In this document: positions 3,050-42,395 of the stretch, piece after piece | Position numbering within the stretch: position 1 is the first letter of the stretch | Layout: every line of letters begins with the position of its first letter | IMG/VR virus record: IMGVR_UViG_3300008050_008852 | Span: 32,001-96,000 of that record | From: a virus | DNA length: 64,000 bases | Direction: 5' to 3' (one strand) | Translations under genes and position numbers: made by a program | The notes under the pieces: generated by a model | The model's database searches: none | Told to the model about the DNA's origin: nothing | Seen by the model: the letters and a program-made list of their open reading frames with translations, nothing else

Positions 3050-4888
3050 ATGGCAAAAAACACAAAAAATATAAAGAAAGAAACCGAAAAGAATTATCTT
3101 GCAAAAGATTATAACTCTTTTAAACAGGAATTGGCTTCATATGCCAAGACATACTTTTCTGATAAAAATTCTGATTTTTCTGAGGCTAGCCTTGGTGGGA
3201 TGTTTGTAGATCTTGCAGCATATATCGGCGATAGCATGTCGTTCTTTTTAGATCATCAATTTAACGAATTAAATCCGCTTACGGCGATAGAATCAGTCAA
3301 TGTTCTTGCACACGCTAAAAACGCAGGTGTAAAAATAACTGGTGCATCGCCTGCAAGTGCTGACGTCGATATTTTTATTGAAGTTCCAGCAATTAAAACT
3401 AGAGGTCGTTATAGACCATCACGCCTATCGCTTCCAATTATTCTAGAAGGAACGACATGTAAATCAACATCTGGTATAACGTTTACAACAACAGAAGATA
3501 TAGATTTTTCTGAAGTAGATTTTAATGGCGAATATACATGCCAAGCTACAGTTTCACAAATTAATTCTTCTGGTAATCCAGCGTACTTTATTTTAACAAA
3601 ACCTGTTGGGGTGACATCTGGAAAATTAAATATAGAATCAATTCCAGTCGGATCCGCGTCCGGTTTTAAGAAAATAACACTAGCAAATACAAATGTATCA
3701 GAAATTATATCAATTGTTGATCTTGATGGAAACGTATATTATGAAGTAGATTACTTAACTCAGAACACTGTTTTTAAAAAGACTAAAAATATAAGTTCTG
3801 ATCAATTTGAGGTTCCTGCTGTATTAGAAGTTATTAATGCTAGCAGAAGATTTATTTCACAAACAGATTATAATACAATGTTAACTACGTTGACTTTTGG
3901 ATCTGGTGATCCAGATTTAAGTGACAATGATATAATTCCAGACCCATCAGAATTGGCTTTACCACTATATGGTAGATCGACATTCCAGCGCTTCTCGATT
4001 GATCCAAAGAATTTATTGCGCTCAAAGACTTTGGGCACTTCGCCAGTAAATACAACTTTAATAATTACATATAGATCCGGTGGTGGCCTATCTCACAATG
4101 TCTCAGCCGAATCAATTAAATTTATTGATAATCTTAGAATTGAATTTCCAAAAAATGCTTCATCAATTATTTCGTCAGGTGTTGTTAATTCAATCGATGT
4201 AAAAAATAAATCCGCCGCAGCCGGCGGCATGCGAAGACCAAATTTGGCAGAATTAAGGTCACAAATATTTTCGTCCCGCAATGAACAATCTAGAATTGTT
4301 ACTAACGATGATTTGTTGGCCCGTCTATATACTCTCCCAGTTCAATTTGGCAAAGTGTTTCGAGCTTCTATCCGAAAATCTTCTAGAAACCCCCTCGCCT
4401 CGGAATTATATATGATTTGTCAAGATAGATCTGGTAATTTAACTATAGCTCCTGATACACTAAAAAGAAACATAGCAATATACTTGAATGAATTTAGATT
4501 AATATCTGATGCAATTGATGTTTTAGATACAACAGTTGTAAACTATGGTGTAGAGTACTCAATAGTTGTGACACCAGAATCGAACAAATCAATTGTTTCG
4601 TCAATGGTTGCAAAATCAATTGCTTTGTTAACAGATATTAATTCATATCAAATTGATCAACCATTAATTGAGGCAGATTTTATAAATGCCATTATCAATA
4701 CACCTGGGGTTTTGTCGCTACAAGATTTTACGTTTTTTAATAGATCTGGAAAGATATCTGGTAAAAATTACAGCAGCTATAGCTATGACTTACAATCTAA
4801 TAAATTTAAAGGTATGATAGTTGGTCCACCTGGATCAATATTTGAATTAAAATATTCATCATTTGACATTGTTGGGAGCGCAGAGTAA
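3050..4888 (+). CDS. Baseplate wedge subunit (T4 gp6/baseplate J-like)
   Basis: N-terminal YLAKDYNSFKQEL...SDFSEASLGGMFVDLAAYIGD, plus LTFGSG, ITYRSGGG and QSRIVTNDD motifs; follows the gp25-like gene. Confidence 0.85.
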   Translation: MAKNTKNIKKETEKNYLAKDYNSFKQELASYAKTYFSDKNSDFSEASLGGMFVDLAAYIGDSMSFFLDHQFNELNPLTAIESVNVLAHAKNAGVKITGASPASADVDIFIEVPAIKTRGRYRPSRLSLPIILEGTTCKSTSGITFTTTEDIDFSEVDFNGEYTCQATVSQINSSGNPAYFILTKPVGVTSGKLNIESIPVGSASGFKKITLANTNVSEIISIVDLDGNVYYEVDYLTQNTVFKKTKNISSDQFEVPAVLEVINASRRFISQTDYNTMLTTLTFGSGDPDLSDNDIIPDPSELALPLYGRSTFQRFSIDPKNLLRSKTLGTSPVNTTLIITYRSGGGLSHNVSAESIKFIDNLRIEFPKNASSIISSGVVNSIDVKNKSAAAGGMRRPNLAELRSQIFSSRNEQSRIVTNDDLLARLYTLPVQFGKVFRASIRKSSRNPLASELYMICQDRSGNLTIAPDTLKRNIAIYLNEFRLISDAIDVLDTTVVNYGVEYSIVVTPESNKSIVSSMVAKSIALLTDINSYQIDQPLIEADFINAIINTPGVLSLQDFTFFNRSGKISGKNYSSYSYDLQSNKFKGMIVGPPGSIFELKYSSFDIVGSAE

Positions 4889-6429
4889 TGTATCTAATTT
4901 ATACTGGAAGCAAAGACACTTATATTACAAACAAGATCATTGATGGCGCCTTCTCTGCTTCTGATGCTAATGTCGGCCAAGCAGGTACTATTGATATATT
5001 TAAGCTCTATGATGAAACATCATTAAATGGTACAACTAAGTTGGCGGAGATATCTAGAGGTCTTATTAAGTTTGATTTATTACCACTACACGCTTTAACA
5101 GGCTCATCCATCGACGTTAATGCAAGTTCATTTAGCGCAAAGATTAAATTACATAATTTGCTTGCCGGAACAGCCACACCATCGAATTTTACGCTTGTCA
5201 TTGCTCCACTATCTAGATCGTTTACTGAAGGTACCGGCCGTGATCTTTCTGCGTTTGCTGATTTAGATGTTGCGAATTTTTACACCTCGTCTATGAGTTC
5301 TGGTTCTCCAGTGACATGGCATTTATCGGGTGCAAATAAGGGTGGCTTGCTTGATTCCAGTAATATTGACTATATAATTTCTGGTACAATTGATGGAACC
5401 TTGCAGTCTTTATCACCAGAACAGACATTTGTTGATGGCACCGAAGACTTATTTATTGATGTCACAACTATAGTTTCTGCTACCTTGGCTGGAAACATTC
5501 CAGATCACGGTTTTAGACTGGCGTTCACCGGTAGTGAGGAAAATGATGCAAAATCTAGGTTTGTAAAACGCTTTGCAAGCCTACAGTCGTCTAACCCTTT
5601 AAAATACCCTACGCTTCATATTACATATGATGATTCAATATCTGATGCTACAAATAATTTTGTTTTTGATTCATCCGGATCAATGTATTTAAACAACTTT
5701 GTTCGTGGTACAAGAACAAATTTTGTGTCAGGAACAGCCGCATCAGATATTACTGGTGCTAATTGCATGCTATTACGCCTTGAAAAAAATGATTTTGAGA
5801 AAACTTATGCAGTCTCCCAAGTATCCGAAGGTACAGATAGTACATTAGTATCTGGTCTATATTCGGCATCTTTTGCATTATCGTTGGCCAATCAAACTAA
5901 AATAAATAATTCGAATGAAACAGTATTAAATTTTGTAAATGCTAGTGGTTCTATTACGTTTGACGCAATATGGTGCTCAAATGATGAAACTGTCGGGTTT
6001 CATACTGGTTCACTTGAAATAACCAGATCAAAATCAACCATGTCAAATTCAGCTCCTGCAGACTTTATAATAAAATCAGTATCAATGCCTTCAACAATTA
6101 ATATTGATGAAGAATTAAGAGTACTCTTTTTTGTTGTTGATAAAAATATTAAACGGAAAGCCAGTAAGATACCACATAGATTAGCTAGCGTACCACTACA
6201 GCAAGTTTATTACCAAATTCGTGATATTGGCTCTAATCAAATTGTTGTTCCATTTGAAACAATAAATTCTGGTACAAAATTATCGAATGATACTTCAGGT
6301 CTATATTTCGACCTCCGTGCCAACACCCTTCAAGCCGGCTATAGCTATACTATTGACCTGCTTGTAAAAGATTTTGATAGACAAAGAATAATCACCGGTG
6401 TTTGCCAGAGCTTTAAGGTAATTAAATAA
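4888..6429 (+). CDS. Virion structural protein, possibly a DNRLRE-like beta-sandwich
   Basis: KDTYI...SRGLIKFDL...DLFIDVT.IV...DHGFRL...FASLQSSNPLKYPTLHITYDD pattern; translationally coupled to the gp6-like gene. Confidence 0.55.
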   Translation: MYLIYTGSKDTYITNKIIDGAFSASDANVGQAGTIDIFKLYDETSLNGTTKLAEISRGLIKFDLLPLHALTGSSIDVNASSFSAKIKLHNLLAGTATPSNFTLVIAPLSRSFTEGTGRDLSAFADLDVANFYTSSMSSGSPVTWHLSGANKGGLLDSSNIDYIISGTIDGTLQSLSPEQTFVDGTEDLFIDVTTIVSATLAGNIPDHGFRLAFTGSEENDAKSRFVKRFASLQSSNPLKYPTLHITYDDSISDATNNFVFDSSGSMYLNNFVRGTRTNFVSGTAASDITGANCMLLRLEKNDFEKTYAVSQVSEGTDSTLVSGLYSASFALSLANQTKINNSNETVLNFVNASGSITFDAIWCSNDETVGFHTGSLEITRSKSTMSNSAPADFIIKSVSMPSTINIDEELRVLFFVVDKNIKRKASKIPHRLASVPLQQVYYQIRDIGSNQIVVPFETINSGTKLSNDTSGLYFDLRANTLQAGYSYTIDLLVKDFDRQRIITGVCQSFKVIK

Positions 6430-9400
6430 TGGCTCGAAAAGGTGTAACAATAACAAATTCAGGCTTATTTAGTACCTCAACTGTATCTGATTTTTCCGCA
6501 CCGGGTGGGCGCACAAGTTTTGATGGCTTGGCTTCATTATCTGGTTCTATAACAACCGGAAGTTCAGTGTTTGAAGATTTTTCTTCCGCGCTTAAATCAA
6601 CACAACAAATTCCGATAGATTGGTCAAAATTTGAAAAACATACGTTTTTTGATTCTGCTGAGAGTAAAATAAATGTTGCGTTCGATACAATTATTAACTT
6701 TTATCCATTCGACAGTCCAGAGTCAGAACGAGCAGAATATATTCAAGGCCTAACCGGATTCGAAAAATATATATATGATACACTCTGGCCAAAGCATAAA
6801 GGGTATTTACATTTTTCTGGAACACAAAAGGGTGAAGATCCATCAGCCGGCCATGCCCCGAATTTAGGTAGTCATATAAGTATTGTTGATCAAGCCGGTA
6901 ATTTATATCCAACCATTAGCAAGAGATCTGATGCTGCTCCAATTATTGATTTTTCTTCTTCCCCATTTACATGCGCGTTTCATTTAAATTTACCGCCACA
7001 GGCAAATGATAATGCCACAATTATACAGAAATTAACACAAAGCCATGGCTTTTCACTTTTTATAAGTGAATCAGCCAGTTTAACAGAAGCCTCTGTTGTA
7101 TTTGCAATTTCGTCTGGTTCGACCGCGATTAGCGCTAGCGTCGCGTTTGAAAAATCAAGTACTGATTTTCATCACTGTGCCGCAGTGCTGACCCGCCGTA
7201 TAAACGAAAATCCTGGGTTATTAATTTATAAAGACGGCCGACTTCTTGCTACATCTTCACAAACTGCCAATATTGGACAATTAAACTTTAAGACAGCAAA
7301 TATTCTAATTGGCTCAGGCTCTAGTCATAATTTGGGTACGTATTCAACAACATTTGATGCCATAACAACATTTTCTGGTTCATTAGATGATTTAAGACTT
7401 TATAAGACTGAGAAAAATATTACTCAAATAAAAAATATAGCTTCAGGAACATATGGTCACGTTCCTGATTTATTGGCATATTATAAATTTAATGAAGCCA
7501 CCGGTTCGTATGACAACAATGAGATAGTTTTAGATCACTCTGGTAATTCACTACATGGTTCAATTACTAATTATACTTCAAGCTTAAGGGTTAAGGGCGA
7601 TCTTGTTGATCCAATGCCTAATGAAGATATTGATAATAATCCCGTTCTATTCCCTTCGTTTCCTAAACTAGTCGCATTAAATAGAAATTTGTTATTAACT
7701 GCGTCAAATTATGACGCAAATAACCCTAATCTTATTACAAAAATGATTCCTCGACATTATCTTGAAGAGGAAGCATATACGATGGGTTATCCAAATGCCC
7801 GAGCCGGCTTAGGTGAAGAGTACTCCTATACATCTGATTTTCCTGGCGGTGGTGATCCAGGATCACCGCAATTGATTGCTTCATTATTGTTTATGTGGGC
7901 TAAATTTTTCGATGAAATAAAATTATTCATTGATCACTTTGGATCGTTATTAAAAATAGATTATGATGACCCCGGAACAGTTGCTGATGTAATGTTACCA
8001 TTTTTTGCAAAGTATTATGGCATCGCTCTACCAAATATGTTTTCAGATGCAACTGCAGAGCAGTATCTTAAAGGTCAAAATGTTCTGTTAGATGCTCAAA
8101 AGTCAGATATGAGTCTTGCTAAAATTCAAGCTACAATCTGGCGTCGTATTTTAATAAATATTCAGGATTCAATTAGATCTAAGGGAACAATTCACGGTAT
8201 AAAGTCAGTCATGCGCGCCACTGGAATTAATCCAGATACAATGTTTAGATTTAGAGAATCTGGTGGCCCTCGTGAATTAAGCATTACGGATTCTAGAATA
8301 TTTAGAAATGAAACGAGTTCTATGCTTCATTTTGCTTCTTCGAGTATACTAGTTAGTAAGTTTTTAAGTGGAAGTAGAGTCGAACCAGGTCTACCAATAA
8401 TATCCACCGAAGGAACAATGGTTGAAAAAACTGTTACTTCACCTCATGGTATATCAAATTGGAAATGGGATGGTTTATTCACTAGTGGTTCTTGGACAAC
8501 TGAATTTATAACCAAACAAAATCCACCAAAATTAATCACATCTGCATCAATAAGTAGAATGTGTTCAACAGGTTCGCTTGGTCTAACAATGCTATCAAAT
8601 TGCATTGCTGTCGGAGCAAGTAAAAAAACAACCTCAACTGGTTCATTAACATTATTTCATAATCCAGTTGGTATATCTGGTATATCTCCACTTGAGCTTC
8701 ATTTAACTGGTACAGATATATTTGATGGAGGTATCTGGCACATTTCTTATGGAAGAGAAGTCCAGCAAGATATGACGGCCAGCTATTTCCTCCGCGCCGG
8801 TAGACAATCCAACGGTACATTGACAGAATATAAGTCAGTGTCAACAACGGCTAGCTTTGGTGTTGAGGATCTCTATTCAAGCGGATCCACTCAGGCAAAT
8901 GTATCTGGTTCATTTATGCAATTTGGTACATCACAATTTGACACATTCTCTGCTGGCTTAAACAATGCCGCAGTTACGTCTCATGCAAAGGTAAGCACAT
9001 GTACAGGTTCGGTCGGTAGAATTCGGTTTTGGTCAAAGGCACTAACTCCCGCTGAGACAAAGGAACATATAAGGAATTTTAAATCCGTCGGTGTCGAAGA
9101 TCCTCTTTTAAACTTTAATTTTGTTGTAAATAGTTCTGGTTCATTTGAACGTATGCGCTTTGATGCTCAATGTGATCAAATAACAACGTCCTCTGATACT
9201 CTTGGAAATGTTGATATTTTCGACTATTCACAAAACAATTTCCATATGTCAGGAACCTTGTTTCCAGCTGCAAAAGAAATAATAAAGCCTCAAGATTTTA
9301 GATTTTCTTCATTAAATACAAAATTTGATGAGCGCTCAACAACAAACAAGATTAGAATAGCCGGTTTCTTGGCTGATGAAAACATTGAAATGTTCAATAC

Positions 9401-9875
9401 TTTGAAGTCTCCAGTAAGAACAATTCCACTTGGTACACCAGTCGAAGATGATACAAGATTTTCTATAGAAATATCGTCTTGTAAGGCTTTAAATGACGAT
9501 ATTATTTTGCTGCTTGGAACTCTTGATTTCTTTAATGATGCCTTGGGATCACCAGAATTAATGTTTGCACAAGATTACCCTAATATCATTGCTTTAAGAC
9601 AAGTTTATTTTAATAGATTAACAGGTAAGATTAATTACAAAAATTTAGTATCATTCTATAAATGGGTCGACGATACAATTGGTTTTTTAATAAATAGAAT
9701 GATACCAAGTAATACGAGTTTTCATGGTATGAATTTTGTAATTGAATCTCATATGCTTGAAAGAAGTAAGCTTAGATATTTACAGGAAGATATTTATTTA
9801 GGTGAGAATGATCGTAGAGGCCTACAAACAGATCTTAATCTGCAACAAGTAGTAGGTCAATTAAAGAGGTTTTAG
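6429..9875 (+). CDS. Large baseplate protein with LamG/concanavalin-like domains and a gp7/P2 gpI-like segment
   Basis: LamG motifs FSGSLDDLRLY and LLAYYKFNE...VLDHSGNSLHG; wedge-like motif IWRRILINIQDSIRSKGTIHGIKSVMRATGI. Confidence 0.65.
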   Translation: MARKGVTITNSGLFSTSTVSDFSAPGGRTSFDGLASLSGSITTGSSVFEDFSSALKSTQQIPIDWSKFEKHTFFDSAESKINVAFDTIINFYPFDSPESERAEYIQGLTGFEKYIYDTLWPKHKGYLHFSGTQKGEDPSAGHAPNLGSHISIVDQAGNLYPTISKRSDAAPIIDFSSSPFTCAFHLNLPPQANDNATIIQKLTQSHGFSLFISESASLTEASVVFAISSGSTAISASVAFEKSSTDFHHCAAVLTRRINENPGLLIYKDGRLLATSSQTANIGQLNFKTANILIGSGSSHNLGTYSTTFDAITTFSGSLDDLRLYKTEKNITQIKNIASGTYGHVPDLLAYYKFNEATGSYDNNEIVLDHSGNSLHGSITNYTSSLRVKGDLVDPMPNEDIDNNPVLFPSFPKLVALNRNLLLTASNYDANNPNLITKMIPRHYLEEEAYTMGYPNARAGLGEEYSYTSDFPGGGDPGSPQLIASLLFMWAKFFDEIKLFIDHFGSLLKIDYDDPGTVADVMLPFFAKYYGIALPNMFSDATAEQYLKGQNVLLDAQKSDMSLAKIQATIWRRILINIQDSIRSKGTIHGIKSVMRATGINPDTMFRFRESGGPRELSITDSRIFRNETSSMLHFASSSILVSKFLSGSRVEPGLPIISTEGTMVEKTVTSPHGISNWKWDGLFTSGSWTTEFITKQNPPKLITSASISRMCSTGSLGLTMLSNCIAVGASKKTTSTGSLTLFHNPVGISGISPLELHLTGTDIFDGGIWHISYGREVQQDMTASYFLRAGRQSNGTLTEYKSVSTTASFGVEDLYSSGSTQANVSGSFMQFGTSQFDTFSAGLNNAAVTSHAKVSTCTGSVGRIRFWSKALTPAETKEHIRNFKSVGVEDPLLNFNFVVNSSGSFERMRFDAQCDQITTSSDTLGNVDIFDYSQNNFHMSGTLFPAAKEIIKPQDFRFSSLNTKFDERSTTNKIRIAGFLADENIEMFNTLKSPVRTIPLGTPVEDDTRFSIEISSCKALNDDIILLLGTLDFFNDALGSPELMFAQDYPNIIALRQVYFNRLTGKINYKNLVSFYKWVDDTIGFLINRMIPSNTSFHGMNFVIESHMLERSKLRYLQEDIYLGENDRRGLQTDLNLQQVVGQLKRF

Positions 9876-10822
9876 TGACAACAATTACTCCGCCTTTCAC
9901 TGGCTCATATGCTATAAACCTTCAAGGTATAAATGTTTCGAGTTTTGATTTATTCGGAATGTCGATTTCACCTAAACTTGGAAGAAATGGTATAAAGACA
10001 TTTTTATCATCAAGTACAACAATTCTTGATGTGTCGCAAAATGCTAGAACGTTTTTTGATGATTCAATTCGTCTTCCAAAGCAAATTAGTTCTATTACTG
10101 CCTTATCATCTAGTAACGTTGAGGTAATATCTGACGATACATTTAAGGTTCAACAATTTCCAAATTATATGCTTTCTAGACAAACATTTGGGCTAGAAAG
10201 AAACGATCAAGGTGGTCCTTTTACTGAACTTGATTCGTACAGCGCAGTAAGTTATATCAAAGAGCAAACTGATTATTTGGCACCTGTAATAATTGATTCG
10301 CCATCAACAATAGATATATCAGAATTTTCTGGTGTAATAGAACCATTTGCTCTCCGAAAAGTGATAGATAACGCTTCAACGTTTTTAGGAACCTTTGATG
10401 ATCCTGAACCCACAGGTGTACGAGGTTCTTTGGATTCTGGTATTAGCCAAACAGATAGAAAAACAAAAACAGTAAAGTCAGATAATTTTTATGATATAAG
10501 ACAAAGTACTAGCAATTATTTTGAAGAAGTTGGCCTCCGCCCAGAAGATGAATTATTTGCTGGTGATTCTTTTACACTTGAGGTACCACTAGAATCTGTT
10601 GATATTGTCACCGTAGTACCATTTATTGATACGACATCAATTAATGAATCATATAACAATATAACGAGTGTTGAAATTAAGAATATTTTAATAAGTAGTT
10701 CGCTACGTTCTGATTTACCAAATGGCTTTCCGGGGTTAAATTTTAAAAGTGCACCGACAGGCTTTGAGTATGATAATTCTAGAGGCGTCGATTCAATTAC
10801 ATACGGCGGACAATTAAAGTGA
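9875..10822 (+). CDS. Hypothetical structural protein
   Basis: 315-aa ORF with GTG start, overlapping both neighbours in the baseplate operon. Confidence 0.6.
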   Translation: MTTITPPFTGSYAINLQGINVSSFDLFGMSISPKLGRNGIKTFLSSSTTILDVSQNARTFFDDSIRLPKQISSITALSSSNVEVISDDTFKVQQFPNYMLSRQTFGLERNDQGGPFTELDSYSAVSYIKEQTDYLAPVIIDSPSTIDISEFSGVIEPFALRKVIDNASTFLGTFDDPEPTGVRGSLDSGISQTDRKTKTVKSDNFYDIRQSTSNYFEEVGLRPEDELFAGDSFTLEVPLESVDIVTVVPFIDTTSINESYNNITSVEIKNILISSSLRSDLPNGFPGLNFKSAPTGFEYDNSRGVDSITYGGQLK

Positions 10823-13800
10823 AAAAAAATAGTAGAATATCAAGATATTATGACCTAACAAAAGATTTTGGTGAGTATAAATCGTCTAATTCATTAATTG
10901 GTTGGTGGACATTTAATAATAAGGACTCACCTTCAGCACAACAAATACCTTCAAAAGGAACTACGAGTCTTCCAGGAAAATTTATTGATGGCTGGGATGA
11001 TCAGGTTGTTTTAGGCCCTTCTTCATTTGAATCTCCAACTTTTTTAAAGGGTTTGCAACATTTAAATAAAGCTTCAGCTACTATTAGCAATGGTATTAAA
11101 GGTTTTCAGGTTGATGGTTTTGCAGATCAATCAAGTTATCCGACTAAAACATTTACACTATCAATCACATTTAGAATACTTCAAGATTATCCTCAACCAA
11201 TCGGCGCTGGCGCCGGCGATAAAAAAATTAATATTGCAACTATTTGTGATACCAATCCCGATACCCAAGACGGCCGTTTAGGCTTGTATTTTGATAGTGA
11301 TGGAGCCCCAGGCGGTCTTCCAAGCTTTTCTACTGCCCTTGCAATAGATGATGGTACAGTGAAAATATGGCAGTCCTATTTCGATCCCACACACCCAAGA
11401 TTTTCATCAATAAAACATTTAAGGGAATGGATTAGGATTGATTTTGTTGTTAACGACATCATCCGCGCAGAGTCGAAAGGCTGGTTGGGAAGTCAATATG
11501 CCGAAATATATATTAATGGTTTACCACCAGAGACAAAACAGTCCATCAACACCGCCGCGGTCAGCAGCTTCGACATAACCAAGCTTTTAATTGGGGGGGT
11601 GGAGGACAACTTTGCCCCGCTGGCAGGTAAACCAGGTATTCAATTGGGTGAGGTTGCCATCTTCTCCGCGGCCCTCACATCAAACGAAATTAGTTATCTT
11701 TATGATAAAACACAGTCATCTGAAAATTCTGGAAAATTAACAAATTCTCCAAGATCACAATTGACCTGTGGCGAATGTGAACATGATAGTTATCCAACAA
11801 TTAATCGATCCACTGACTGGAGAAGAACAGGCAGAAGAATACCTGTGTTTTCTGAAGATGAAGGGTTTACGGTACCTACCCAAACCGGCGTAATTAATTA
11901 TCCCACACTATTATTGTCCGGCACAGAAGCCGATGCAGCAATTGGTACAATTTTAACAAATAATAATTCGTTACCAACAATAGAAACTGTTATTGATACA
12001 CCTTCTGGTTCAATTGGTAGATCAAATATTGTTAAATCATATAAAAAATGTAGTTCTACAACAGATTCATCAGATATATACAGACCATTCAACGACCTGA
12101 TCGCCCCAACTAATATTGCGACTCAAAATAGTCATATGGCACACAGTTATCCAGGGTTTACAAATACTCTTGGTGATAGAGTTATAATAGATATTGACAT
12201 AACTCCCACAAGTGCAAAAGTTTTGCGTGTTGTGACTGGATCTGACGGTGAGACATTTGATGGCCCCAATACTTTATCAAGTATAGAAAATACTGGTTTG
12301 GCATATTTTAATTTTGTTAATGGTAATTTTGAATCAATAGGTGGTATAAATTCAGAAACAGGCGTGCGTAGTAACTGGAATTTACCAGGCGCTCGTTCCG
12401 GTTCCGCCTGTATCGGGAATAAAGCTGCATACGATGCCGGCCCCCTATATCAAAAATTTAATTCATTAACTGATGAGGATTGGTTAAAAATCCCACGAAT
12501 ATTTCAGCCCTATTCATCAATTATTTCTCATCGTGGTACGTTTAATCATCCTCATACGACCGACTTTAATAGTTTTCAATTTTTTAAAGGAAAGTCGTCA
12601 GCAGTATTAGATATTGACACCTCCGCCCCACTCTCCGCTCCAACAGCCACCCAGCCTCTTTTTCCAGATCCAGATAGTTGGTTTGAGTCTACAGTCGGGT
12701 ACCCCAACTCTCCAGGCTACGGCGGTTATAATCGCGTTAACAATGAATGGTCTCCATATAATTCTGACGTTTCCGGCCGTGGTTGGTGGTTCTTTAAATT
12801 CAAAAACGATCCAAAAAAATATCCAGACCCGCAGATGAAAACTCCATCGCTAATTTGGAATCGCTCAACAGCCCCTGTAGATTTAGGATTAAAATTTCTA
12901 TCAACACTTTCAACATTAGGTAAACCAATAGTATACACAAATTGGTGTAATAACAGTTTGTTTCATGCTTCTTCTTCCCAAACGTTGAAAATGAGTGATT
13001 ATATTAATTCTCCATTACTTTTAGAATCATTTGAGGTTAATGTTGATGTAGAGGCCAAACGTTTACAGCGCCCTTTTCTTAAGGAGATAGGCTCTGGTAA
13101 ATTTGCAATGGCAAGTAATACAAATAACCACATTGATTGTTTAACATTTTTCTTATTGCGTCAAGAAAATCCACATGTCAATTCTTTTACACCTTTAATA
13201 AGAAGTCAGGGTTCAAAACGTGAATTAGTATCTTATTCAAATCATATTTTTGCTTCTACATATGTTGGATATGATTGGCTTGATAGATCTCGCATTGCAG
13301 TAGATTGGAATACCGGTGACCAAACAACAGTGCCTTATTGTGGTTCTCGAACTTCAAGGGTTTTTGCTGTTCGAGAGGATGAGGTTCTTGATACAGTTGC
13401 TGCAAGCGATTCGTTTTCATATTATAAAAAATCGGACGGCACATCCCAAACCTCCCATGGCCCAAACGGCATATTTTTCTCAAAATTCAATGATTATACT
13501 ATTTTAGGGCATCCAGATCCAGATATCCCCTTGGACACCCGGGATATTAAAGCCTCGAAGCAACCTTTTGAGCAATATGTTACTGCGTCTAAAACAATTT
13601 CAACTATAGCCCCAGTACGAATAACTGAAGCATATGCACAAAAAATAACACCTGTATTACCTTCAATGCAAAGTACAGTGCCTCAAAGGGTTGGGGTTTC
13701 TAATGTTCAAGGACCATTCTTTAATTTTCATACCATGGGCAGCACCATCGATTATTTTTTTAGAAAGACATCAACTCCAATTCAACCACGTTTATTTTTG

Positions 13801-16245
13801 GACTGTATGGGCACTTACTGGCCTGGAGGAACAACTACTAAAAATAGAAAGAGGTTTGATAGTGATTTACTTTCTATTTATGCTTACACTAGCCCCGCCT
13901 ATCAATGGCCATTTGAAAAGATCGAAGATAGATTTTCTCATCCATATTCTAGAATTCTTACGTATAAAACCGGGTCTGTTAATACTTTGACATTTGAACC
14001 AGCAGCTGACATTATTTCAAAAATGTATACACCTCCAACCCGTAATATAGTTGGACCTGCAGGTTCTGCTAGAAAATATCTAAAAGATCGTGGAGGGGTC
14101 TTACCTGCAACACCAACAAGAACAGTAGCTCCATCGCAGTACTTGGCATATGATCCTACATATGCCCAGTCAGCTTATCCACCGTCTAATGTTATGGCTG
14201 GCAATCAAACACACAATCCAGCTCCAGGCTATATGTATTTTGATATGACTGGTTCTGTTAAAGAATCTGGCTACGTCTTATTACCACAAGATGAATTAAT
14301 TCTTGGAGTACAATGGTCTCCTGCAGACGCAGTACATAGATCATTTAAGGCAATCTCACATAATGCAAAGAATCTAACCTTTAAAAATCAATTGGCCGTC
14401 GGCCTCGGCGAGGTGCCTTATTTCAATAATGCAACCGCATTTGAAACAGCATGTTCGTCGTCAATTTCTGCTCCAGAAGTAGGTGCTCATACATATCGAA
14501 ATGCTGGATATTGTAATACAAATGATTTAACAATGTATGCTTCTGCATCATGTACAATCCTTCAAAAACCTGCCACGTTGAGACTTTATGGGACGCTTAT
14601 TAAAAATAATAAGCAGAAACAACATGTCCTACCTCAGCAATTAGTTACAAATTGCATACATGAAGCCATTGGAGATGAGCCTATTTTAGATGTATATGAG
14701 ATATCTTCCACCCATCTTCTATCAACATCCCCAGCAGCAAAATATGTTAGTGGTTCACTTTCTTCTGAATCTATATACTTTGATGTATCAACCAGCAAGA
14801 CACTTAATCATAGATATGACTTAGGCCGCGGCGAACGTAGATCTTATGCTAATTCAAACTTATTTGATGTAGGTTCGGTTAAGAGAGTGTCAAAGGCTTT
14901 TGATATGTCTGAATATTATTATGACTCTTTGGCGCCAAGTATAGAAGAGATGTTTAATATAGATGAAGTTCCACAAGTCTCATGTAGTGGTTCACTAAGT
15001 ATGTTCCCCGGGGGTGATATATTGCGCTCTCCCGATCCAGCCATCCTTAAGAAATATGACGCCACCAATGGAACATTTGTACCTATCTCTAGAGATTTTT
15101 ATCCCATCGCTGTAGATTCACACAACCGGAGTGAATATATTATAAGTGGCATCAATAATGCACCAGCACCTACAAATAAAGTTTTTGGTAGATCATTTCC
15201 TTTTGAACCTCGTTATTCAAGTGTTAAACGCATGTTTTATCAAAATCCCCAAGCTGGATATTTTTTCGGATGGCAAGAAGGCAGCACAAAATCCACAGAA
15301 AAACCATTTTATCCGACCATGTATTCTGGTTCACTTAATTGGCTCGGTCTCACCGGCGCATCGCATCTATCACAAGTTGGTTTTACTTCCGCCTCTCTCC
15401 ACATGGACCCCGGGATCATCCCAAATAACGGTTATACCTACCTCGACGGTCAATATGGAAGCACCGTGAGCCCAGCAGAAACAAAAGAATGGGATAAATA
15501 TAAGGGGCTTTTATTGCCACCTTCGATAGAAAAAATAAATAGATCTAGGGATATGGGTCCATCAACAGCTGTTGTATCACCAAACTTACCTGGGAGCCTC
15601 TTTAGAAAAGATTTCTTCCAAGGTGACTATACCGATCCAGGCGGCCCGGATTCTGTTGGGCATATTGTAACAAATTTTGAATTAACTTCGAGTAATAAAA
15701 CAAATTTACAGGCATTTTTTGGTGTTGGTGACAATCGCTATGGCTTACTAAACCATTATTATTATTATCTTGAATTTATCCCAGTCGGCAAAAACCACCC
15801 ACTCGAAGTCTTCAATTTTATTCGACATGCTTCGTTATTAACTCATAAACCTCGAGGGTATCGTTATGGTTTAATATCATCTTCACCAAAAAAACTAGAT
15901 GCTACATATCGACGAAATAATTATGGTCAGTTTCGCGACCTTCTTGAACAAAGAAAATATTCTGCATTATTTATCAATGATCCAATTGACGTTGTAATAG
16001 GTCGTAATAATAATAATTTACAACATCGAAGTAATTTAGTTACTACGCCAGCAGTGACTTGTACTTTTCGAGAACCAATTTTTAAAAATCCAATTATAAC
16101 AGGTCAGGCTGCTCAAGTATCTCCGGTACAAACAAATTCGTCAAATTTAAGTAATGCGGCAACGTCGTCACTTCCTTTCTACGACGGCGAATTAAAAAAT
16201 AGAGATACCGCCCCAGCCTCAGATACAGAAACTATTGTTTTGTAG
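10819..16245 (+). CDS. Very large virion protein with an N-terminal LamG-like domain
   Basis: 1808 aa; LIGWWTFN and EIYINGL...LLIGG...GEVAIFSAALTSNEISYLY LamG-like motifs. Confidence 0.6.
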   Translation: MKKNSRISRYYDLTKDFGEYKSSNSLIGWWTFNNKDSPSAQQIPSKGTTSLPGKFIDGWDDQVVLGPSSFESPTFLKGLQHLNKASATISNGIKGFQVDGFADQSSYPTKTFTLSITFRILQDYPQPIGAGAGDKKINIATICDTNPDTQDGRLGLYFDSDGAPGGLPSFSTALAIDDGTVKIWQSYFDPTHPRFSSIKHLREWIRIDFVVNDIIRAESKGWLGSQYAEIYINGLPPETKQSINTAAVSSFDITKLLIGGVEDNFAPLAGKPGIQLGEVAIFSAALTSNEISYLYDKTQSSENSGKLTNSPRSQLTCGECEHDSYPTINRSTDWRRTGRRIPVFSEDEGFTVPTQTGVINYPTLLLSGTEADAAIGTILTNNNSLPTIETVIDTPSGSIGRSNIVKSYKKCSSTTDSSDIYRPFNDLIAPTNIATQNSHMAHSYPGFTNTLGDRVIIDIDITPTSAKVLRVVTGSDGETFDGPNTLSSIENTGLAYFNFVNGNFESIGGINSETGVRSNWNLPGARSGSACIGNKAAYDAGPLYQKFNSLTDEDWLKIPRIFQPYSSIISHRGTFNHPHTTDFNSFQFFKGKSSAVLDIDTSAPLSAPTATQPLFPDPDSWFESTVGYPNSPGYGGYNRVNNEWSPYNSDVSGRGWWFFKFKNDPKKYPDPQMKTPSLIWNRSTAPVDLGLKFLSTLSTLGKPIVYTNWCNNSLFHASSSQTLKMSDYINSPLLLESFEVNVDVEAKRLQRPFLKEIGSGKFAMASNTNNHIDCLTFFLLRQENPHVNSFTPLIRSQGSKRELVSYSNHIFASTYVGYDWLDRSRIAVDWNTGDQTTVPYCGSRTSRVFAVREDEVLDTVAASDSFSYYKKSDGTSQTSHGPNGIFFSKFNDYTILGHPDPDIPLDTRDIKASKQPFEQYVTASKTISTIAPVRITEAYAQKITPVLPSMQSTVPQRVGVSNVQGPFFNFHTMGSTIDYFFRKTSTPIQPRLFLDCMGTYWPGGTTTKNRKRFDSDLLSIYAYTSPAYQWPFEKIEDRFSHPYSRILTYKTGSVNTLTFEPAADIISKMYTPPTRNIVGPAGSARKYLKDRGGVLPATPTRTVAPSQYLAYDPTYAQSAYPPSNVMAGNQTHNPAPGYMYFDMTGSVKESGYVLLPQDELILGVQWSPADAVHRSFKAISHNAKNLTFKNQLAVGLGEVPYFNNATAFETACSSSISAPEVGAHTYRNAGYCNTNDLTMYASASCTILQKPATLRLYGTLIKNNKQKQHVLPQQLVTNCIHEAIGDEPILDVYEISSTHLLSTSPAAKYVSGSLSSESIYFDVSTSKTLNHRYDLGRGERRSYANSNLFDVGSVKRVSKAFDMSEYYYDSLAPSIEEMFNIDEVPQVSCSGSLSMFPGGDILRSPDPAILKKYDATNGTFVPISRDFYPIAVDSHNRSEYIISGINNAPAPTNKVFGRSFPFEPRYSSVKRMFYQNPQAGYFFGWQEGSTKSTEKPFYPTMYSGSLNWLGLTGASHLSQVGFTSASLHMDPGIIPNNGYTYLDGQYGSTVSPAETKEWDKYKGLLLPPSIEKINRSRDMGPSTAVVSPNLPGSLFRKDFFQGDYTDPGGPDSVGHIVTNFELTSSNKTNLQAFFGVGDNRYGLLNHYYYYLEFIPVGKNHPLEVFNFIRHASLLTHKPRGYRYGLISSSPKKLDATYRRNNYGQFRDLLEQRKYSALFINDPIDVVIGRNNNNLQHRSNLVTTPAVTCTFREPIFKNPIITGQAAQVSPVQTNSSNLSNAATSSLPFYDGELKNRDTAPASDTETIVL

Positions 16246-25000: not shown

Positions 25001-25206
25001 ATGCTCTGCTTAATTCTCTCACTATCCCCAATATTAATTTTGTAATTAACGAAAGAAGTTTTCATAAAAATCAAGTTTTTTTGAACGGTGTGTTGATGGC
25101 TTCTGGCTCATCTCTTGACTATACTATTGACACTCCTGCTACAGGCTCACTGACGTTTAACCTTCCCCTTGAGGAAGATGACGTAGTAATAATTAGACAG
25201 ACTTGA
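22033..25206 (+). CDS. Tail-fibre-like repeat protein
   Basis: 1057 aa; about six copies of the ~90-aa unit ATL(T/S)GS.FSG...(S/T)GSL..L..G.SYL.AG; two C-terminal (V/L)NGVL..SGS..DY...GSL.F...LE.DDVV domains. Confidence 0.7.
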   Translation: MGYDAKTERLVSIKKLAGKAQTSNDKGLSNEGLPSGLTVAAASVFGESISTTPASTALYDITGKVEFLRLQVTFIPGTGTPTGRHGFELKLPADYEANSSNSSKGTYPFINDQTINITSGALQLVPPAFAIAYEAKPFYGGSSAKDSGTQIPVLDSRDWYLDYFNGVFFQQDPPGTGDHANNPDYVEAFLYVGDMLDTVVANAGGTGGADADAQYLVLQATSSLGAERVFNPSTGISVVDAGPGENYTLSINNAIVATLTGSQFSGNIGVTGSIGATTVVTSPAITGSLTQLQDGSSYLIAGSGITIASASNGAITITNDGTVGDITGVTAGAGLSGGGTSGTVALNIDNSVVATLSGSQFSGNIGTTGSIGSTTVITSPAFSGSLTNLQDGTSYLVAGNNIQIVTGSSGAITITGTSTGDITSIVAGAGLTGGGASGDVTLNINDGIVATLTGSQFSGNIGVTGSIEATSFFSGSMFKAPILSGSLTKLHDGSSYLLAGPGISITSASSGAITITNDGTAGDITSVIAGTGLSGGGSSGDVTLNINDSVVATLTGSIFSGNVVAQSGLTGSLQSLTDGTSYLRPGNVNVTITTASAGYISISSTDTNTTYTAGDGLDLSGTEFSIDLKSSGGLKIDSTELAIDNSIVATLTGSQFSGNIGITGSITATSGISGSLTHLSNGTSYLIAGNNIQISTGSSGAVTITGTSTGDITSIVAGAGLTGGGASGDVTLSIDDSVTATLTGSVFSGIISAPALSGSLTTLQNGSPFLISGTGISLTTGSSGAITINSTAAGGSGDQNAEFIVAAPTGSLPSAKTISAGSGITITTGSNSMIVSATSILSKGRSKESYFVTASHPAVTEFSTPLSNYSDVLQAPDLIDILVNGVLLHSGSSAQIASSLMDYRIASSGSLEFSFGLETDDVVDAIIIVTSSGSIDNTASYLLQQATSSLPNSRTFTTGSGTTLQDSGPQGTFVFDTSPTTNLYVLTASHALLNSLTIPNINFVINERSFHKNQVFLNGVLMASGSSLDYTIDTPATGSLTFNLPLEEDDVVIIRQT

Positions 25207-28120: not shown

Positions 28121-28154
28121 GTAACATAATATACGGTTATATTTTATAACTGTT

Positions 28155-28187
28155 GGAGACCCGATTTATTCGGGTCTCCTTTTTTTT
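28155..28187 (+). terminator. Intrinsic terminator
   Basis: GGAGACCCGA-TTTAT-TCGGGTCTCC followed by a T-run; a second hairpin (ACGGTTATA-TTT-TATAACTGT, 28133-28153) lies just upstream. Confidence 0.92.
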
Positions 28188-28240
28188 ACTTTTTTTTTCT
28201 TTACGATAAAATAAAACAGAAAATATTATGGAGTTTTTTG

Positions 28241-28783: not shown

Positions 28784-28799
28784 TTCCATGAGGTAGAAT

Positions 28800-37953: not shown

Positions 37954-37955
37954 CC

Positions 37956-38693: not shown

Positions 38694-40016
38694 ATGTCAA
38701 ATTTTAAAACAATCGGCGCCGATGATATTCAAACGTCGACAAGTGTATTAAGTCAATTAGTTGATGTTATACAAGAAGATATATCTGGATCAAGTACCAG
38801 AAGAAAATATCAAGTTTTTGTAACTGGAGGCTTAGGGCCAGGAGTTACATCGTCATTATTTCAAACAGTTTATGATCAAGATTTTTCATTACAAACAAGT
38901 AATGCTGTTCTTGATATGAGTATTGGCTTATTTGAATCTGGTAGTACAGTGACTGCATGCTCAACTGGCACCGACGTTAACGGAAAACTGTTGTTTCCAT
39001 CACAATCAATAATGATGAGAGAAAAGGTTTCAAATTACAAACAATTCGCACAGGTTTTATTGGGCGATTCTGATGCCTCATTTTATGCTCCAGGTATTAA
39101 TTTGTATGATACGTCCGCAACTGCTACTGGGTTATCTACTGGTTCAAAGGGTGATAGAATTGAAGAGGCATTATTTGTTAGCTTTAAACGCTTGTTTGCA
39201 CGAGATGAAATAAGAAAAGAGACGTTTGCATTAAAACTATTCATGTCAGCAGCACTAGATGGTAGTCAAGTTGATGCCGATGGTGTGGCCACTGATATTG
39301 CGCAGGCATATACAGGTTCAAACATATTTATAACATCTACATCTGGCAGCGCTATTTATGCCGATGTGGGAGCCTCAGCTACACAGCTTAAACACTTTGG
39401 CGGCGACGTCGGTTTTGTAAAAAATACAGCTGATACATCTAGGACTGTTGGGCTAATGTGGTATGATCATGGTATCTGTGTTTTAGACATGGGTAAAGTA
39501 TTTTGTGGTGATCAACATATGTCTGGAACGTTAAGTGCGGTTACAAATGCATCTCCTGATGTATTTCCTGTAGGCACAACACTTCTTGGTTATGGTGGCG
39601 AACCTGTAGATGCCCGCGGCTATAGTTCAAATGTTTCTGCCTCATTTATTCCAGATTTTGTAGTATCTGCCTCGATTGATACAATTGTTGATCACGTCGC
39701 TTCCACCCGCTTTGGCTCTGGTTCTTTCACTGCTACAACGTTTCAAAACGTAACAAACATCAATTCAACACTTATTTTCTGCCGCGCCACTGCGGATGAA
39801 TTTAATTATTCGTCAAACCCAACATTTAGAAATTCTAATGGTGAATTGGTTGTTATAGATCCAGGAGACGACACCGGACAACGTACATTTACGTTTGTTA
39901 CTACAGTTGGTTTGTATAATAGCAATAATGAATTACTTGCTGTTGCGAAATTATCTCGACCTGTTGAAAAGAATGATGAAAAGGACCTTACAACCCGCGT
40001 CAGACTTGACTTTTAG
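38694..40016 (+). CDS. Baseplate/tail-associated structural protein
   Basis: C-terminal FCRA...EFNYSSNPT...FVTTVGLYNSNNELLAVAKLSRPVEK...RVRLDF. Confidence 0.6.
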   Translation: MSNFKTIGADDIQTSTSVLSQLVDVIQEDISGSSTRRKYQVFVTGGLGPGVTSSLFQTVYDQDFSLQTSNAVLDMSIGLFESGSTVTACSTGTDVNGKLLFPSQSIMMREKVSNYKQFAQVLLGDSDASFYAPGINLYDTSATATGLSTGSKGDRIEEALFVSFKRLFARDEIRKETFALKLFMSAALDGSQVDADGVATDIAQAYTGSNIFITSTSGSAIYADVGASATQLKHFGGDVGFVKNTADTSRTVGLMWYDHGICVLDMGKVFCGDQHMSGTLSAVTNASPDVFPVGTTLLGYGGEPVDARGYSSNVSASFIPDFVVSASIDTIVDHVASTRFGSGSFTATTFQNVTNINSTLIFCRATADEFNYSSNPTFRNSNGELVVIDPGDDTGQRTFTFVTTVGLYNSNNELLAVAKLSRPVEKNDEKDLTTRVRLDF

Positions 40017-40043
40017 TTCTTTTTTTGGAATGAGTGATGCTTC

Positions 40044-42395
40044 ATGTCTTTTGTAAAAATTACAAAATCAAATACTGACACTGCGTATGTAAGGTTACAT
40101 CCAAGCAGAAGTTTTGTATCATCATCATCTGGCGTTACAGGATCAGTGCGTGTAATAGCACAGTCCTCACCGTTTTTTAAAGAGGTTAGTTCATTTAGTC
40201 CATTTGTAGACAACCCTATAGATGATACAAGCATTGAGTCATATAGACAATCATTATTTATGTTGACAGGATCAGGCTTAAATTTAAGTGCTTCCGCACA
40301 TGAATATATGGGCTTAATTTCGTCAGCATCTTCAGCTGCACGTCAGTCAAAATACGTAGAGGTATTACGCTTCACACCAACAAATACATTAACATCTGAT
40401 ACACAAAGAAAAAGTGTTTATAGAAAAGTTTTATTACCATACTATCAAACTGAAAATCCTGATGCTGGATTTAATTTCACAAATTATCAATGCTTTAATT
40501 TTGTTAGCGCCTCAGTATTTCCCAGTGCATCGGCATTAATATATCCAGATCCTTTAGACAATTATTCTGTAATGAGTGGGTTTTCGTTTTCGTTTAATTC
40601 AAAAATTGCAAGAGATGCAGGTTATACAGTTAATGGTGACCCATGGGACTATCCAGCAGGGTGTGTGTTGTTTAGATCATCATCATATGCGGTGTCTATT
40701 GTCTCCGGTTCTAAAAAGGATCATACTGGTTTTCCGGCGGCATATAGAGTGTTACTGCAATTAAGTTCAGCTGTTGATACTAGTCCGTCATTACTTGATT
40801 TAAACGCCTTACCAAATTATACATTTTTAAGCTCTGATAACGTTTTAAAAAAGAACCACTGGCACAACGTGGCAATTTCGTGGGGTAAAGATCATAACGC
40901 AGGAACCGGTTCATTTTTTATTGATGGCCAAAAAGACGAATCTGCAGACTTTACGTTATCAACAATAAGTATTAATACATCCTCAGACGATTTTAACGCC
41001 TTGATGCTCGGGGCGCGCTTTTCTGGAAATAACGACTCTTATTCTGGCTTTTTCAATCCAGCTGTATCTACAGAAGGCGTCTATTCCGGAGGCGCCGCCA
41101 TAGAACCTGAAAATACTAGTCTTACAAATAGATTAAATGGAGAAATTAATGATATTCGTGTATACAGTAACGTTTTAGCCCCTGATTTAATTGAAACTGG
41201 ATCACAATTTGGTTTGACCACAATTCCATCTGGTATGGTTTTTTATGCACCATGTTTTTTCGTAAAAGAAAGTCCTGTAAGGTTGTCTTTATTAACACCG
41301 TTTCAACAAGAGACAACTGGTACACAAGAACCATATAACGTAAAACTTAGTTATGGTGTAAATGGCCGCGACATTAATTTACAGAATTATACAAGGGATT
41401 TTGTTCAAAATAATTATCCACGCTTATATCATTTAACAGCATCAACTATAGACACTTCAACAAGCACATATTCTGCCAATTCATTTCTTTTAGACATAGG
41501 CACAAATAAATTAATGCATCAAGCACGTGGAATGTTTATATTGCCAAGTGATAATGGTAAATTTGTTCCAGGCTGGAATTTACTTGCCAGTGGTACAATT
41601 GTTGATAAACCAGATTCAAGTTCGCCAATGTCAAGATACGTTAATGATTTAGACTATATGAATTATGCTATTGTATCGTTAAATAATATGATATCAACAT
41701 CATCAATTCTTGAGGGTTTAGTACAAGTAAATTCAGATGGTTCTGATAATACTGCTCAAACCGGTTTGTTACAACAAATAATGGGTGGTAGTCCAGAAGA
41801 CGTAAGCGTAGATCCAGGATCTGGTTATACGATATTACAAAGAACTCGTGATAATTCGTCAAATATGGTCACGTTTTTTGACTCTAGTAATTTATTTTAT
41901 GGTAAGAGAATAAAGTCAAGCACAATTACTTTAAGTGAACAAGAAATATCTGGTACATCTGGCACACTTTCAATGAGATTTAAAGATAATGGGATGGGTG
42001 GTATGTATAGGGCAGACGCGTCGTCTATTCATGCAACTTTTTCTAGAATTGGTGACGTTCTATACCAAGAAGGTATTGTTGGAATTTTACACCCATGTAT
42101 TCCGTTTTTTGGTAAAAATTCTTTTAATATAGATTTTAAGGGTGATCAAAACGTACATGTTTATGAAGTCAATGTTCCTGCCATGGCCGGTATGTTAAAT
42201 TCAAGCTCCAACCCAAATTATGTTGCGGGTACTAAAGATGATTATGCATCATCATATGAAGGGCCTGTTGTTGGGATTAGTTCAATACTTTTTCATGATG
42301 AAAATTTTAATGTAGTTGCAAGAACAAATTTCGCTCAACCTATACTAAAGACAGAATTTGATAAATATTTATTTAGGATAAAGTTTGATTTTTGA
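40044..42395 (+). CDS. Structural protein with a LamG-like domain; C-terminal paralog of 38694
   Basis: NHWHNVAISW...FFIDGQ...LNGEINDIRVY; C-terminal NSSSNPNY...ISSILFHDENFNVVARTNFAQPILK...RIKFDF. Confidence 0.65.
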   Translation: MSFVKITKSNTDTAYVRLHPSRSFVSSSSGVTGSVRVIAQSSPFFKEVSSFSPFVDNPIDDTSIESYRQSLFMLTGSGLNLSASAHEYMGLISSASSAARQSKYVEVLRFTPTNTLTSDTQRKSVYRKVLLPYYQTENPDAGFNFTNYQCFNFVSASVFPSASALIYPDPLDNYSVMSGFSFSFNSKIARDAGYTVNGDPWDYPAGCVLFRSSSYAVSIVSGSKKDHTGFPAAYRVLLQLSSAVDTSPSLLDLNALPNYTFLSSDNVLKKNHWHNVAISWGKDHNAGTGSFFIDGQKDESADFTLSTISINTSSDDFNALMLGARFSGNNDSYSGFFNPAVSTEGVYSGGAAIEPENTSLTNRLNGEINDIRVYSNVLAPDLIETGSQFGLTTIPSGMVFYAPCFFVKESPVRLSLLTPFQQETTGTQEPYNVKLSYGVNGRDINLQNYTRDFVQNNYPRLYHLTASTIDTSTSTYSANSFLLDIGTNKLMHQARGMFILPSDNGKFVPGWNLLASGTIVDKPDSSSPMSRYVNDLDYMNYAIVSLNNMISTSSILEGLVQVNSDGSDNTAQTGLLQQIMGGSPEDVSVDPGSGYTILQRTRDNSSNMVTFFDSSNLFYGKRIKSSTITLSEQEISGTSGTLSMRFKDNGMGGMYRADASSIHATFSRIGDVLYQEGIVGILHPCIPFFGKNSFNIDFKGDQNVHVYEVNVPAMAGMLNSSSNPNYVAGTKDDYASSYEGPVVGISSILFHDENFNVVARTNFAQPILKTEFDKYLFRIKFDF

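Follow-up and report, generated by a model that had tools for sequence, protein, structure and literature searches.

Ser/Thr-Gly-Ser tripeptides in baseplate and fibre proteins of an uncultured aquatic T4-like phage: a candidate motif for phage-encoded O-glycosylation

Tripeptides in the structural module

We analysed the distribution of the tripeptide Ser/Thr-Gly-Ser ([ST]GS) among the proteins encoded by a 64,000-nucleotide stretch of viral DNA (the window), which corresponds to bases 32001-96000 of the 128,008-bp contig IMGVR_UViG_3300008050_008852, and by the remainder of that contig. The window harbours a T4-like structural module, with genes for a gp6-like baseplate wedge protein, the terminase, the portal and the major head protein, and also contains SbcC-like and other replication and repair genes. 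The contig is ~43% complete as estimated by CheckV and has a total of 100 open reading frames (ORFs), which are named here by their start coordinate in the window; glycosyltransferase (GT) genes are given in contig coordinates. The source is an uncultured aquatic T4-like phage, and it represents a common aquatic lineage of large phages, since the protein encoded by ORF 38694 has many relatives, including some on contigs of 275-293 kb. A preliminary description of the window had proposed that [ST]GS marks exterior virion proteins and acts as a surface sequon for a glycosyltransferase or other modifying enzyme.

The number of [ST]GS tripeptides in each ORF was compared with the mean of 2000 composition shuffles of that ORF. 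The contig encodes 138 [ST]GS against 53.9 expected, and the excess was confined to seven of its ORFs, with 37 vs 30.4 in the remaining 93. Within the window, the seven proteins with the highest counts in the preliminary description carried the motif in numbers above their shuffle means (Table 1). Hand counts in the preliminary description were exact for all seven, and the enrichment persisted on shuffling, six of the seven reaching p<=0.002 and ORF 40044 being the weakest. Of the seven ORFs that account for the excess on the contig, one lies beyond the window (contig 4190-7927, 1245 residues, 14 [ST]GS vs 3.6); an Atlas search with this protein gave weak leads only, to viral clusters scoring 0.85-0.90.

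Table 1. Motif-bearing proteins, two contrast cases and the paired GT4 genes (window coordinates unless marked; expected, mean of composition shuffles).
Name	Coordinates	Strand	Description	[ST]GS	Expected	p
4888	4888..6429	+	513 residues; directly after the gp6-like baseplate wedge gene	7	0.93	<=0.002
6429	6429..9875	+	1148 residues; Laminin_G_3 at residues 173-334 (Pfam PF13385, E=1.5e-8)	14	1.94	<=0.002
10819	10819..16245	+	1808-residue structural-module protein	8	2.62	0.002
16255	16255..22023	+	1922-residue fibre-like protein; tandem zone at ~residues 441-730, duplicated C-terminal half	24	7.77	<=0.002
22033	22033..25206	+	1057-residue fibre-like protein; about six tandem repeats of ~97 residues, residues 246-835	28	5.56	<=0.002
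38694	38694..40016	+	440 residues; highly conserved clade-signature protein in the baseplate/fibre module	6	0.94	<=0.002
40044	40044..42395	+	783 residues; Laminin_G_3 at residues 258-335 (PF13385, E=1e-6)	5	1.53	0.016
3050	3050..4888	+	gp6-like wedge (PHROG baseplate wedge subunit); contrast case	0	0.79	
57814	57814..59754	+	major head protein; not individually significant	3	1.21	0.12
GT4a	contig 28360-29613		first of the last two genes of the sugar cluster			
GT4b	contig 29610-30764		stop/start overlap with GT4a; upstream of the baseplate genes			

The remaining counts of the preliminary description were likewise reproduced. The three sites of the major head protein lie at residues 136, 188 and 254, N-terminal of its HK97-like part (phrog_138 match at residues 383-629 of 646), and the gp13-like and gp15-like proteins (ORFs 60317 and 62149) have two sites each. 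No [ST]GS was present in ORFs 42392, 42942, 43943, 44603, 47793, 49425, 51328, 52166, 53954, 54439 and 54974, nor in 3050, 32082 and 36104. This set comprises proteins for replication, packaging and head assembly, together with the gp6-like protein, 32082, 36104 and three Gly/Ser/Thr-rich proteins encoded at 53954-55498. The claim that the motif marks exterior virion proteins stood for a subset of baseplate and fibre proteins, but not for the fibre-like ORFs 25595 (2 vs 1.9), 29687 (1 vs 0.9) and 32082 (0 vs 1.4), nor for two of three tail-sheath paralogues.

These sheath paralogues, of ~1050 residues each, are encoded in tandem from window 63463-64000 onward (contig 95463-104994). All three match the single sheath gene of phages immuto, RM378, Mel-JY01, T4 and S-SM2, and the first of them has 4 [ST]GS vs 1.18 expected. 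Among the zero-count proteins, a 218-residue ORF (43943-44599) and an 857-residue ORF (44603-47176) both matched one 3.2-kb ORF of Mel-JY01 (183173-186373) at 40-41% identity, indicating that the nuclease and the SbcC/Rad50-like part, which the present phage keeps apart, are joined or annotated as a single ORF in that phage.

The two proteins with the most sites, 22033 and 16255, consist of 13-15% Ser, about 13% Thr and 12-13% Gly and have a tandem repeat of ~97 residues in common, as might be expected if the excess were an artefact of composition, repeat expansion or a signal in the DNA. The excess nevertheless persisted outside the tandem zones, both in 22033 (6 [ST]GS vs 1.07, p=0.0006) and in 16255 (13 vs 5.65, p=0.003), and five enriched proteins have no tandem repeat. 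This rules out repeat expansion as the sole cause, in line with what the preliminary description had argued. Composition shuffles were exceeded at p<=0.002 in six of the seven proteins listed above, while Gly/Ser/Thr-rich 25595 and 53954-55498 showed no excess. In addition, 106 motif sites are encoded by 63 different 9-mers, and the signal therefore resides in the protein and not in the DNA; the diverse codons beneath the motif rule out a DNA-level signal. An artefact of any of these kinds is thus hardly credible.

We then asked which tripeptides are raised in the six proteins free of tandem repeats, using the other 92 ORFs as background. SGS (34 vs 6.7 expected) and TGS (20 vs 4.9) were strongly enriched and SGT (14 vs 4.9) and SAS (15 vs 5.4) were also raised, whereas AGS (2 vs 4.2), GGS (3 vs 5.4), NGS (0 vs 3.5) and DGS were not. 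In the background, SGS (16 vs 15.6) and TGS (16 vs 13.2) were close to expectation. Taken together, the motif is a real, ordered, protein-level feature that is limited to a subset of tail-distal proteins, in which it is about fivefold in excess.

The proteins that bear it are structurally diverse. An AlphaFold2 (AF2) model of 4888 (predicted local distance difference test score, pLDDT, 76.9) comprised a jelly roll resembling a carbohydrate-binding module (CBM), followed by beta-sandwiches resembling immunoglobulin (Ig) or fibronectin type III domains. The model of 38694 (pLDDT 68.5) had no match at E<=0.001 in a Foldseek search against the PDB, a wide VIA-align search gave a best Z of only 3.3, and profile searches of PDB sequences yielded nothing useful for assigning its fold. 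PHROGs had no family for any of the seven motif-rich proteins. The motif is therefore present in at least four unrelated contexts, namely Laminin_G domains, CBM/Ig-like sandwiches, the 38694 fold without known match, and fibre repeats.

Conservation in relatives and in cultured phages

In a scan of viral contigs, homologues of 4888 with identities of 37-94% were found at 46 loci. The excess of [ST]GS extended to whole families: 195 vs 34.3 expected in 46 homologues of 4888, 329 vs 61.3 in 37 homologues of 6429, 109 vs 31.1 in 19 homologues of 10819, and 703 vs 104 in 120 homologues of 38694 (57-100% identity). At residues 32, 208, 218 and 343 of 38694, SGS or TGS was retained in 95-117 of the 120 sequences. 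This protein has at least 4461 relatives at E<=0.001 among 8000 candidates scored. One homologue with 89% identity (P0005) lies on a 100-kb contig labelled at NCBI as a Rhodobacteraceae bacterium metagenome-assembled genome; it is probably phage sequence that was placed in a bacterial bin, or else a hint of the host.

Sites of the 4888 family fell into 22 columns of an alignment of 35 sequences, ~10 of which are semi-conserved for the motif. In 28 near-full-length homologues of 6429 we counted 297 sites in 49 columns. Of these, 198 were in 11 hot columns and 99 outside them, compared with about 46 expected over the whole sequences, which suggests gain and turnover of sites. At many of the positions, orthologues retained either this tripeptide or [ST]-[AS]-S. 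At one site of the 38694 family, Ser is found on both flanks in 120 of 120 sequences while the middle residue is Ala in 72 and Gly in 48; at a site of the 4888 family the middle is Gly in 15, Val in 12 and Ala in 8, with Ser at position 3 in 94%. Several conserved sites behaved in this manner, with flanking Ser at 94-100% and a middle residue that swaps among Gly, Ala, Ser and Val. Since conservation is stronger in the flanking hydroxy residues than in the one between them, we adopted [ST]-[G/A/S]-S as the working motif. For the same reason a Gly-dependent turn is unlikely, and the swaps of the middle residue, along with the lack of enrichment of AGS, GGS, NGS and, in the non-tandem set, DGS, speak against a purely structural beta-turn that depends on Gly.

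The gp6-like family provided a contrast. Its 46 orthologues, which are not independent of each other, have 2 [ST]GS, where shuffling gave a mean of 30.0 (sd 5.2) and never fewer than 16 in 300 shuffles, in spite of a content of 12% Ser, 7% Thr and 6% Gly. That a protein of the inner baseplate avoids the motif would be compatible with its being a sequon.

The C-terminal domain of 38694 was also found in Flavobacterium phage immuto, Microcystis phage Mel-JY01, Rhodothermus phage RM378 and the phage genome LR756508, and the first three genomes were themselves rich in [ST]GS. We counted 118 vs 47.9 in immuto (NC_055915.1), with nine significant ORFs, mostly in the baseplate/fibre module, 134 vs 55.1 in Mel-JY01 with ten significant ORFs, and 53 vs 19.5 in RM378 with five. 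T4 (19 vs 28.1) and cyanophage S-SM2 (63 vs 54.1) had no significant ORF among 243 and 222, respectively. SGS (29 vs 4.0) and TGS (20 vs 2.8) were the two most enriched tripeptides in the module of Mel-JY01; in that of immuto they ranked second and fifth (33 vs 7.2 and 28 vs 6.1). The motif is thus conserved in a clade whose hosts span several phyla (Bacteroidota, Rhodothermus and cyanobacteria), whereas T4-type outgroups lack it. With 25595, 53954-55498 and the sheaths as internal controls, and with T4 and S-SM2, we could reject the idea that the motif is common to beta-rich virion proteins in general.

In immuto, a 373-residue ORF after the neck genes (NC_055915.1 135075-136196; 12 [ST]GS vs 1.25) and the tail sheath (147026-149155; 7 vs 1.28) are also enriched, and the motif in that phage therefore extends beyond baseplate and fibres.

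A sugar-gene cluster and a GT4 pair upstream

The preliminary description had seen no modifying enzyme in the window, and GT genes were indeed found outside it, immediately upstream, in a ~24-kb cluster (contig 8151-31792) that is bordered on both sides by motif-rich proteins. At least six GTs are encoded there (contig 8151-30764): two of family GT2, a Glyco_trans_1_2 protein, a GT9-like protein (contig 24056-24898; PF01075, E=1.2e-4, 21.9 bits against a cut-off of 22) and two of family GT4. The sugar-nucleotide enzymes include a GDP-mannose 4,6-dehydratase, further dehydratases and epimerases, an RmlA-like nucleotidyltransferase and a UDP-glucose dehydrogenase. Tailoring functions are represented by a DegT-type aminotransferase, three FkbM methyltransferases, a C-methyltransferase and a protein with a B12-binding domain, and a sulfotransferase, a cupin and a PfkB kinase are also present. 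None of the 28 ORFs of the cluster has more than one hydrophobic 19-mer, so that no polytopic exporter is visible there.

The two GT4 genes are the conserved part. In each of the 22 related loci whose upstream flank exceeds 8.6 kb they lie side by side, as they also do in immuto and Mel-JY01, while RM378 has one GT4 and T4 and S-SM2 have none. In a search of 50,697 phage records, GT4a matched seven, the same seven that have the 38694-like domain. GT4b matched 37 Streptomyces and one Microbacterium phage records at 24-30% identity. A PD-(D/E)XK nuclease gene precedes the pair (contig 27465-28307), as it does in 20 of the 22 loci and in immuto; in Mel-JY01 a homologue of this nuclease lies ~1.8 kb upstream of the pair.

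Structure prediction of GT4a with GT4b gave a complex score of 0.86, compared with 0.00 for the best of three controls; at least 98% of contacts were common to the runs, and partner pLDDT was at least 90. The mark set for this score is reached by 58 of 80 solved complexes and by 2 of 110 mismatched pairs, counts that hold only roughly here because custom alignments of 22 and 23 rows were used. GT4a and GT4b are thus predicted to form a heterodimer, and the score may reflect likeness to solved GT4 dimers. An EGFGL...E segment, which we take to be the catalytic E-x7-E motif, is kept in both proteins, with E286...E294 invariant in GT4a and E270 invariant in GT4b. When PDB sequences were searched with phmmer, GT4a and GT4b matched 22 and 1 generic GT4 entries, none of which was named GtfA or GtfB; those of GT4a included B736L, a GT4 of chlorovirus PBCV-1 (3oy2, E=2.2e-6).

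The enzymes around the pair vary. Immuto has its own, different sugar cluster beside its GT4 genes, and in immuto, Mel-JY01 and RM378 only the GT4 genes have counterparts, while the sulfotransferase, the kinase and the methyltransferases do not. This bears on the proposal that the motif is recognised by something other than a GT, that is, by an enzyme for another modification of Ser/Thr (phosphorylation, acylation, or sulfation through the cluster sulfotransferase) or by a clade-specific assembly chaperone. Such recognition would be compatible with conservation of the hydroxy residues, with restriction of the motif to one clade and with the presence of a sulfotransferase, a PfkB-family kinase and methyltransferases in the cluster. 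The latter enzymes, though, belong to Pfam families typical of sugar tailoring, the sharing of GT4 genes alone speaks against them, and no chaperone candidate was identified. We regard recognition of this kind as improbable.

Candidate O-glycosylation of the distal tail

Phage-encoded modification of hydroxy residues is the most economical explanation of these observations. O-glycosylation is the leading candidate because a conserved soluble GT4 pair stands next to a sugar island without an exporter; a host enzyme is unlikely because the hosts of the clade span several phyla. We therefore propose, with a probability of roughly 45% and from comparison of sequences, that [ST]-G-S, or its wider form [ST]-[G/A/S]-S, serves as an acceptor motif for O-glycosylation. 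Baseplate and fibre proteins, either assembled or still folding, would be O-glycosylated at the motif in the host cytoplasm. The clade-specific, soluble GT4 pair would act as a heterodimer and initiate the glycan, which enzymes of the variable ~24-kb cluster would supply and extend. The acceptor would be the third residue, Ser, or else the hydroxy residue in first place, and the glycan would coat the distal tail. We infer the action of the GT4 enzymes on these proteins, the acceptor residue and the coat from the data above. The surface-sequon idea of the preliminary description is supported in part, by enrichment, conservation and nearby GT genes; the step from motif to glycosylation is one that we infer, and in LR756508 the excess is lacking.

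The chief alternative is that the tripeptide is an inherited structural or assembly motif that stays unmodified, in which a pair of exposed hydroxyls around a small residue at beta-strand edges would serve inter-subunit hydrogen bonding or tight packing. Such a motif would keep its positions, as is seen in the 38694 family over 57-100% identity and, to some extent, in that of 4888, and several observations that weigh against glycosylation are in keeping with it. Hydrophobic residues are enriched at -1 and +3 of the motif. In the 38694 and 4888 families nearly all of the excess is at inherited positions, with sporadic sites no more numerous than chance would give. A further point against glycosylation is that, of the 13 sites in the AF2 models, 4 fall within a strand or where one begins (residues 6, 263 and 373 of 4888 and residue 217 of 38694), the others being in loops or at the ends of helices or strands; strand starts at +0 to +5 of 6 of the 13 sites were not distinctive against a background of 0.33-0.50. 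The structural reading would also fit two sites of 6429, which appear to coincide with the conserved Gly of the C-terminal strand motif of Laminin_G-type domains, and 52 of the 92 sites of the seven ORFs are in two paralogous, repeat-rich fibre proteins.

Arguing in the other direction, a structural motif would not readily account for the occurrence of the tripeptide in unrelated contexts, for a middle Gly that is less conserved than the flanking Ser, for the lack of enrichment of AGS, GGS, NGS and, in the six non-tandem proteins, DGS, for its avoidance by the gp6-like family or for its absence from T4 and S-SM2 baseplate and fibre proteins. Moreover, the LR756508 homologue of 16255 has [ST]GS at only 2 of 12 sites over ~573 aligned residues, and the fold therefore does not need the motif. 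On balance, an unmodified structural motif seems to us unlikely, if a serious contender.

Further points weigh against O-glycosylation. Several large virion proteins have no motif. In the genome of LR756508 (484 kb), which belongs to the clade, GT4a and the structural genes have homologues, and a BLAST search of it found no GT4b. Its [ST]GS count (125 vs 87.0) is not a specific excess but part of a general 1.4-fold rise in x-G-S, SGS (78 vs 53.5) being similar to GGS (57 vs 40.5) and DGS (67 vs 45.7); the one significant ORF among its 669 is the 38694 homologue. Streptomyces phage Blueeyedbeauty has an adjacent pair of GT genes (NC_048720.1 6177-8152), one of which matches GT4b at 29% identity over ~66% of its length, and shows no excess (26 vs 24.6). 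The simple expectation that the excess accompanies every GT4a- or GT4b-like gene thus fails in both. Post hoc, and as judged from gene content, the excess would seem to track presence of the pair better than presence of GT4a. The comparison includes four positives, all of them related, with two outgroups and one relative as negatives; it is phylogenetically confounded and has few independent points. A literature search found no report of glycan mass or staining on virion proteins of immuto, Mel-JY01 or RM378. Sugar clusters of aquatic phages have also been read as modifiers of the host surface, and, with more than half of the genome lying beyond the contig, genes for exporters or for DNA hypermodification may be located there.

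DNA as the acceptor can be considered for immuto. Liquid chromatography with ultraviolet and mass-spectrometric detection of its digested DNA gave dA, dC, dT and a 324-Da peak, identified as fdPreQ1 replacing dG, and the accessible text of that study reports no glycosylated nucleoside (bioRxiv 10.1101/2023.04.13.536721). DNA is therefore unlikely to be the acceptor in this phage.

Virion glycosylation by phage-encoded enzymes has so far been documented for mycobacteriophages, where, according to PMC12619734, glycans are reported at the C-termini of capsid and tail-tube subunits. As in that system, GTs encoded by the phage genome, here at least six GT-domain ORFs, would act within the host on virion proteins of the phage itself. 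Unlike in the mycobacteriophages, as far as that text describes them, the candidate sites here are internal tripeptides, on baseplate-distal and fibre proteins of a T4-like myovirus, and the sites of the capsid protein lie at residues 136-254 of 646 and not at its C-terminus. The associated enzymes also differ, being a GT4 pair and a ~24-kb sugar cluster. No sequon has been described for any phage in the papers searched, and a search for papers joining Ser-Gly-Ser with bacterial O-glycosylation by a glycosyltransferase found none.

Mechanistic parallels can be drawn with three other systems. GtfA/GtfB is the O-GlcNAc transferase of serine-rich-repeat adhesins in streptococci and staphylococci, of which GtfB is non-catalytic. 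Adjacent GT4 genes, a predicted heterodimer, a putative cytoplasmic acceptor and Ser alternating with small residues are similar here; unlike GtfA/GtfB, both phage proteins keep an E-x7-E-like motif, and the candidate acceptors are isolated tripeptides in folded, beta-rich proteins instead of long Ser-rich repeats. Autotransporter heptosyltransferases (Aah/AIDA-I and TibC/TibA) recognise a structural strand-loop-strand motif. With these, the proposed phage system would have in common cytoplasmic O-glycosylation at many Ser/Thr sites of beta-rich, repeat-bearing surface proteins with hydrophobic strand flanks, but its sole GT9-like match is below the Pfam cut-off, no heptose pathway was identified in it and the sequon is different. 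Chlorovirus PBCV-1 and giant viruses glycosylate their capsid or fibrils with self-encoded enzymes, and the N-linked glycans are at non-canonical sequons of the capsid protein. A virus-encoded sugar kit with methyltransferases and without export, acting on the virus's own structural proteins, would be common to both, whereas those viruses are eukaryotic, with N-linked capsid glycans, and the present one is a bacteriophage with candidate Ser/Thr sites on its tail. The likeness to all three would concern mechanism only; membership in their families is doubtful, or is contradicted by these differences.

In a wider and more tentative form, which we consider possible though somewhat doubtful, a widespread aquatic clade of T4-like phages would have its own cytoplasmic O-glycosylation, with [ST]-[G/A/S]-S as sequon, a GT4 heterodimer, encoded by a core gene pair of the clade, as initiating enzyme and variable islands of exotic-sugar genes. 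These lineage-variable islands would build methylated, aminated or sulfated sugars, and the resulting coat on baseplate and fibres would serve host recognition or shield the tail. The cultured relatives immuto, Mel-JY01 and RM378 make the question directly testable. If true, the GT4 pair would offer a compact and soluble means of glycosylating proteins at chosen sites, and glycosylation sites on tail proteins would become predictable from sequence across thousands of metagenomic phages, as the number of homologues of 38694 illustrates. The sugar islands that are common in aquatic phages could then be re-read as kits for coating the virion, and not as modifiers of the host surface.

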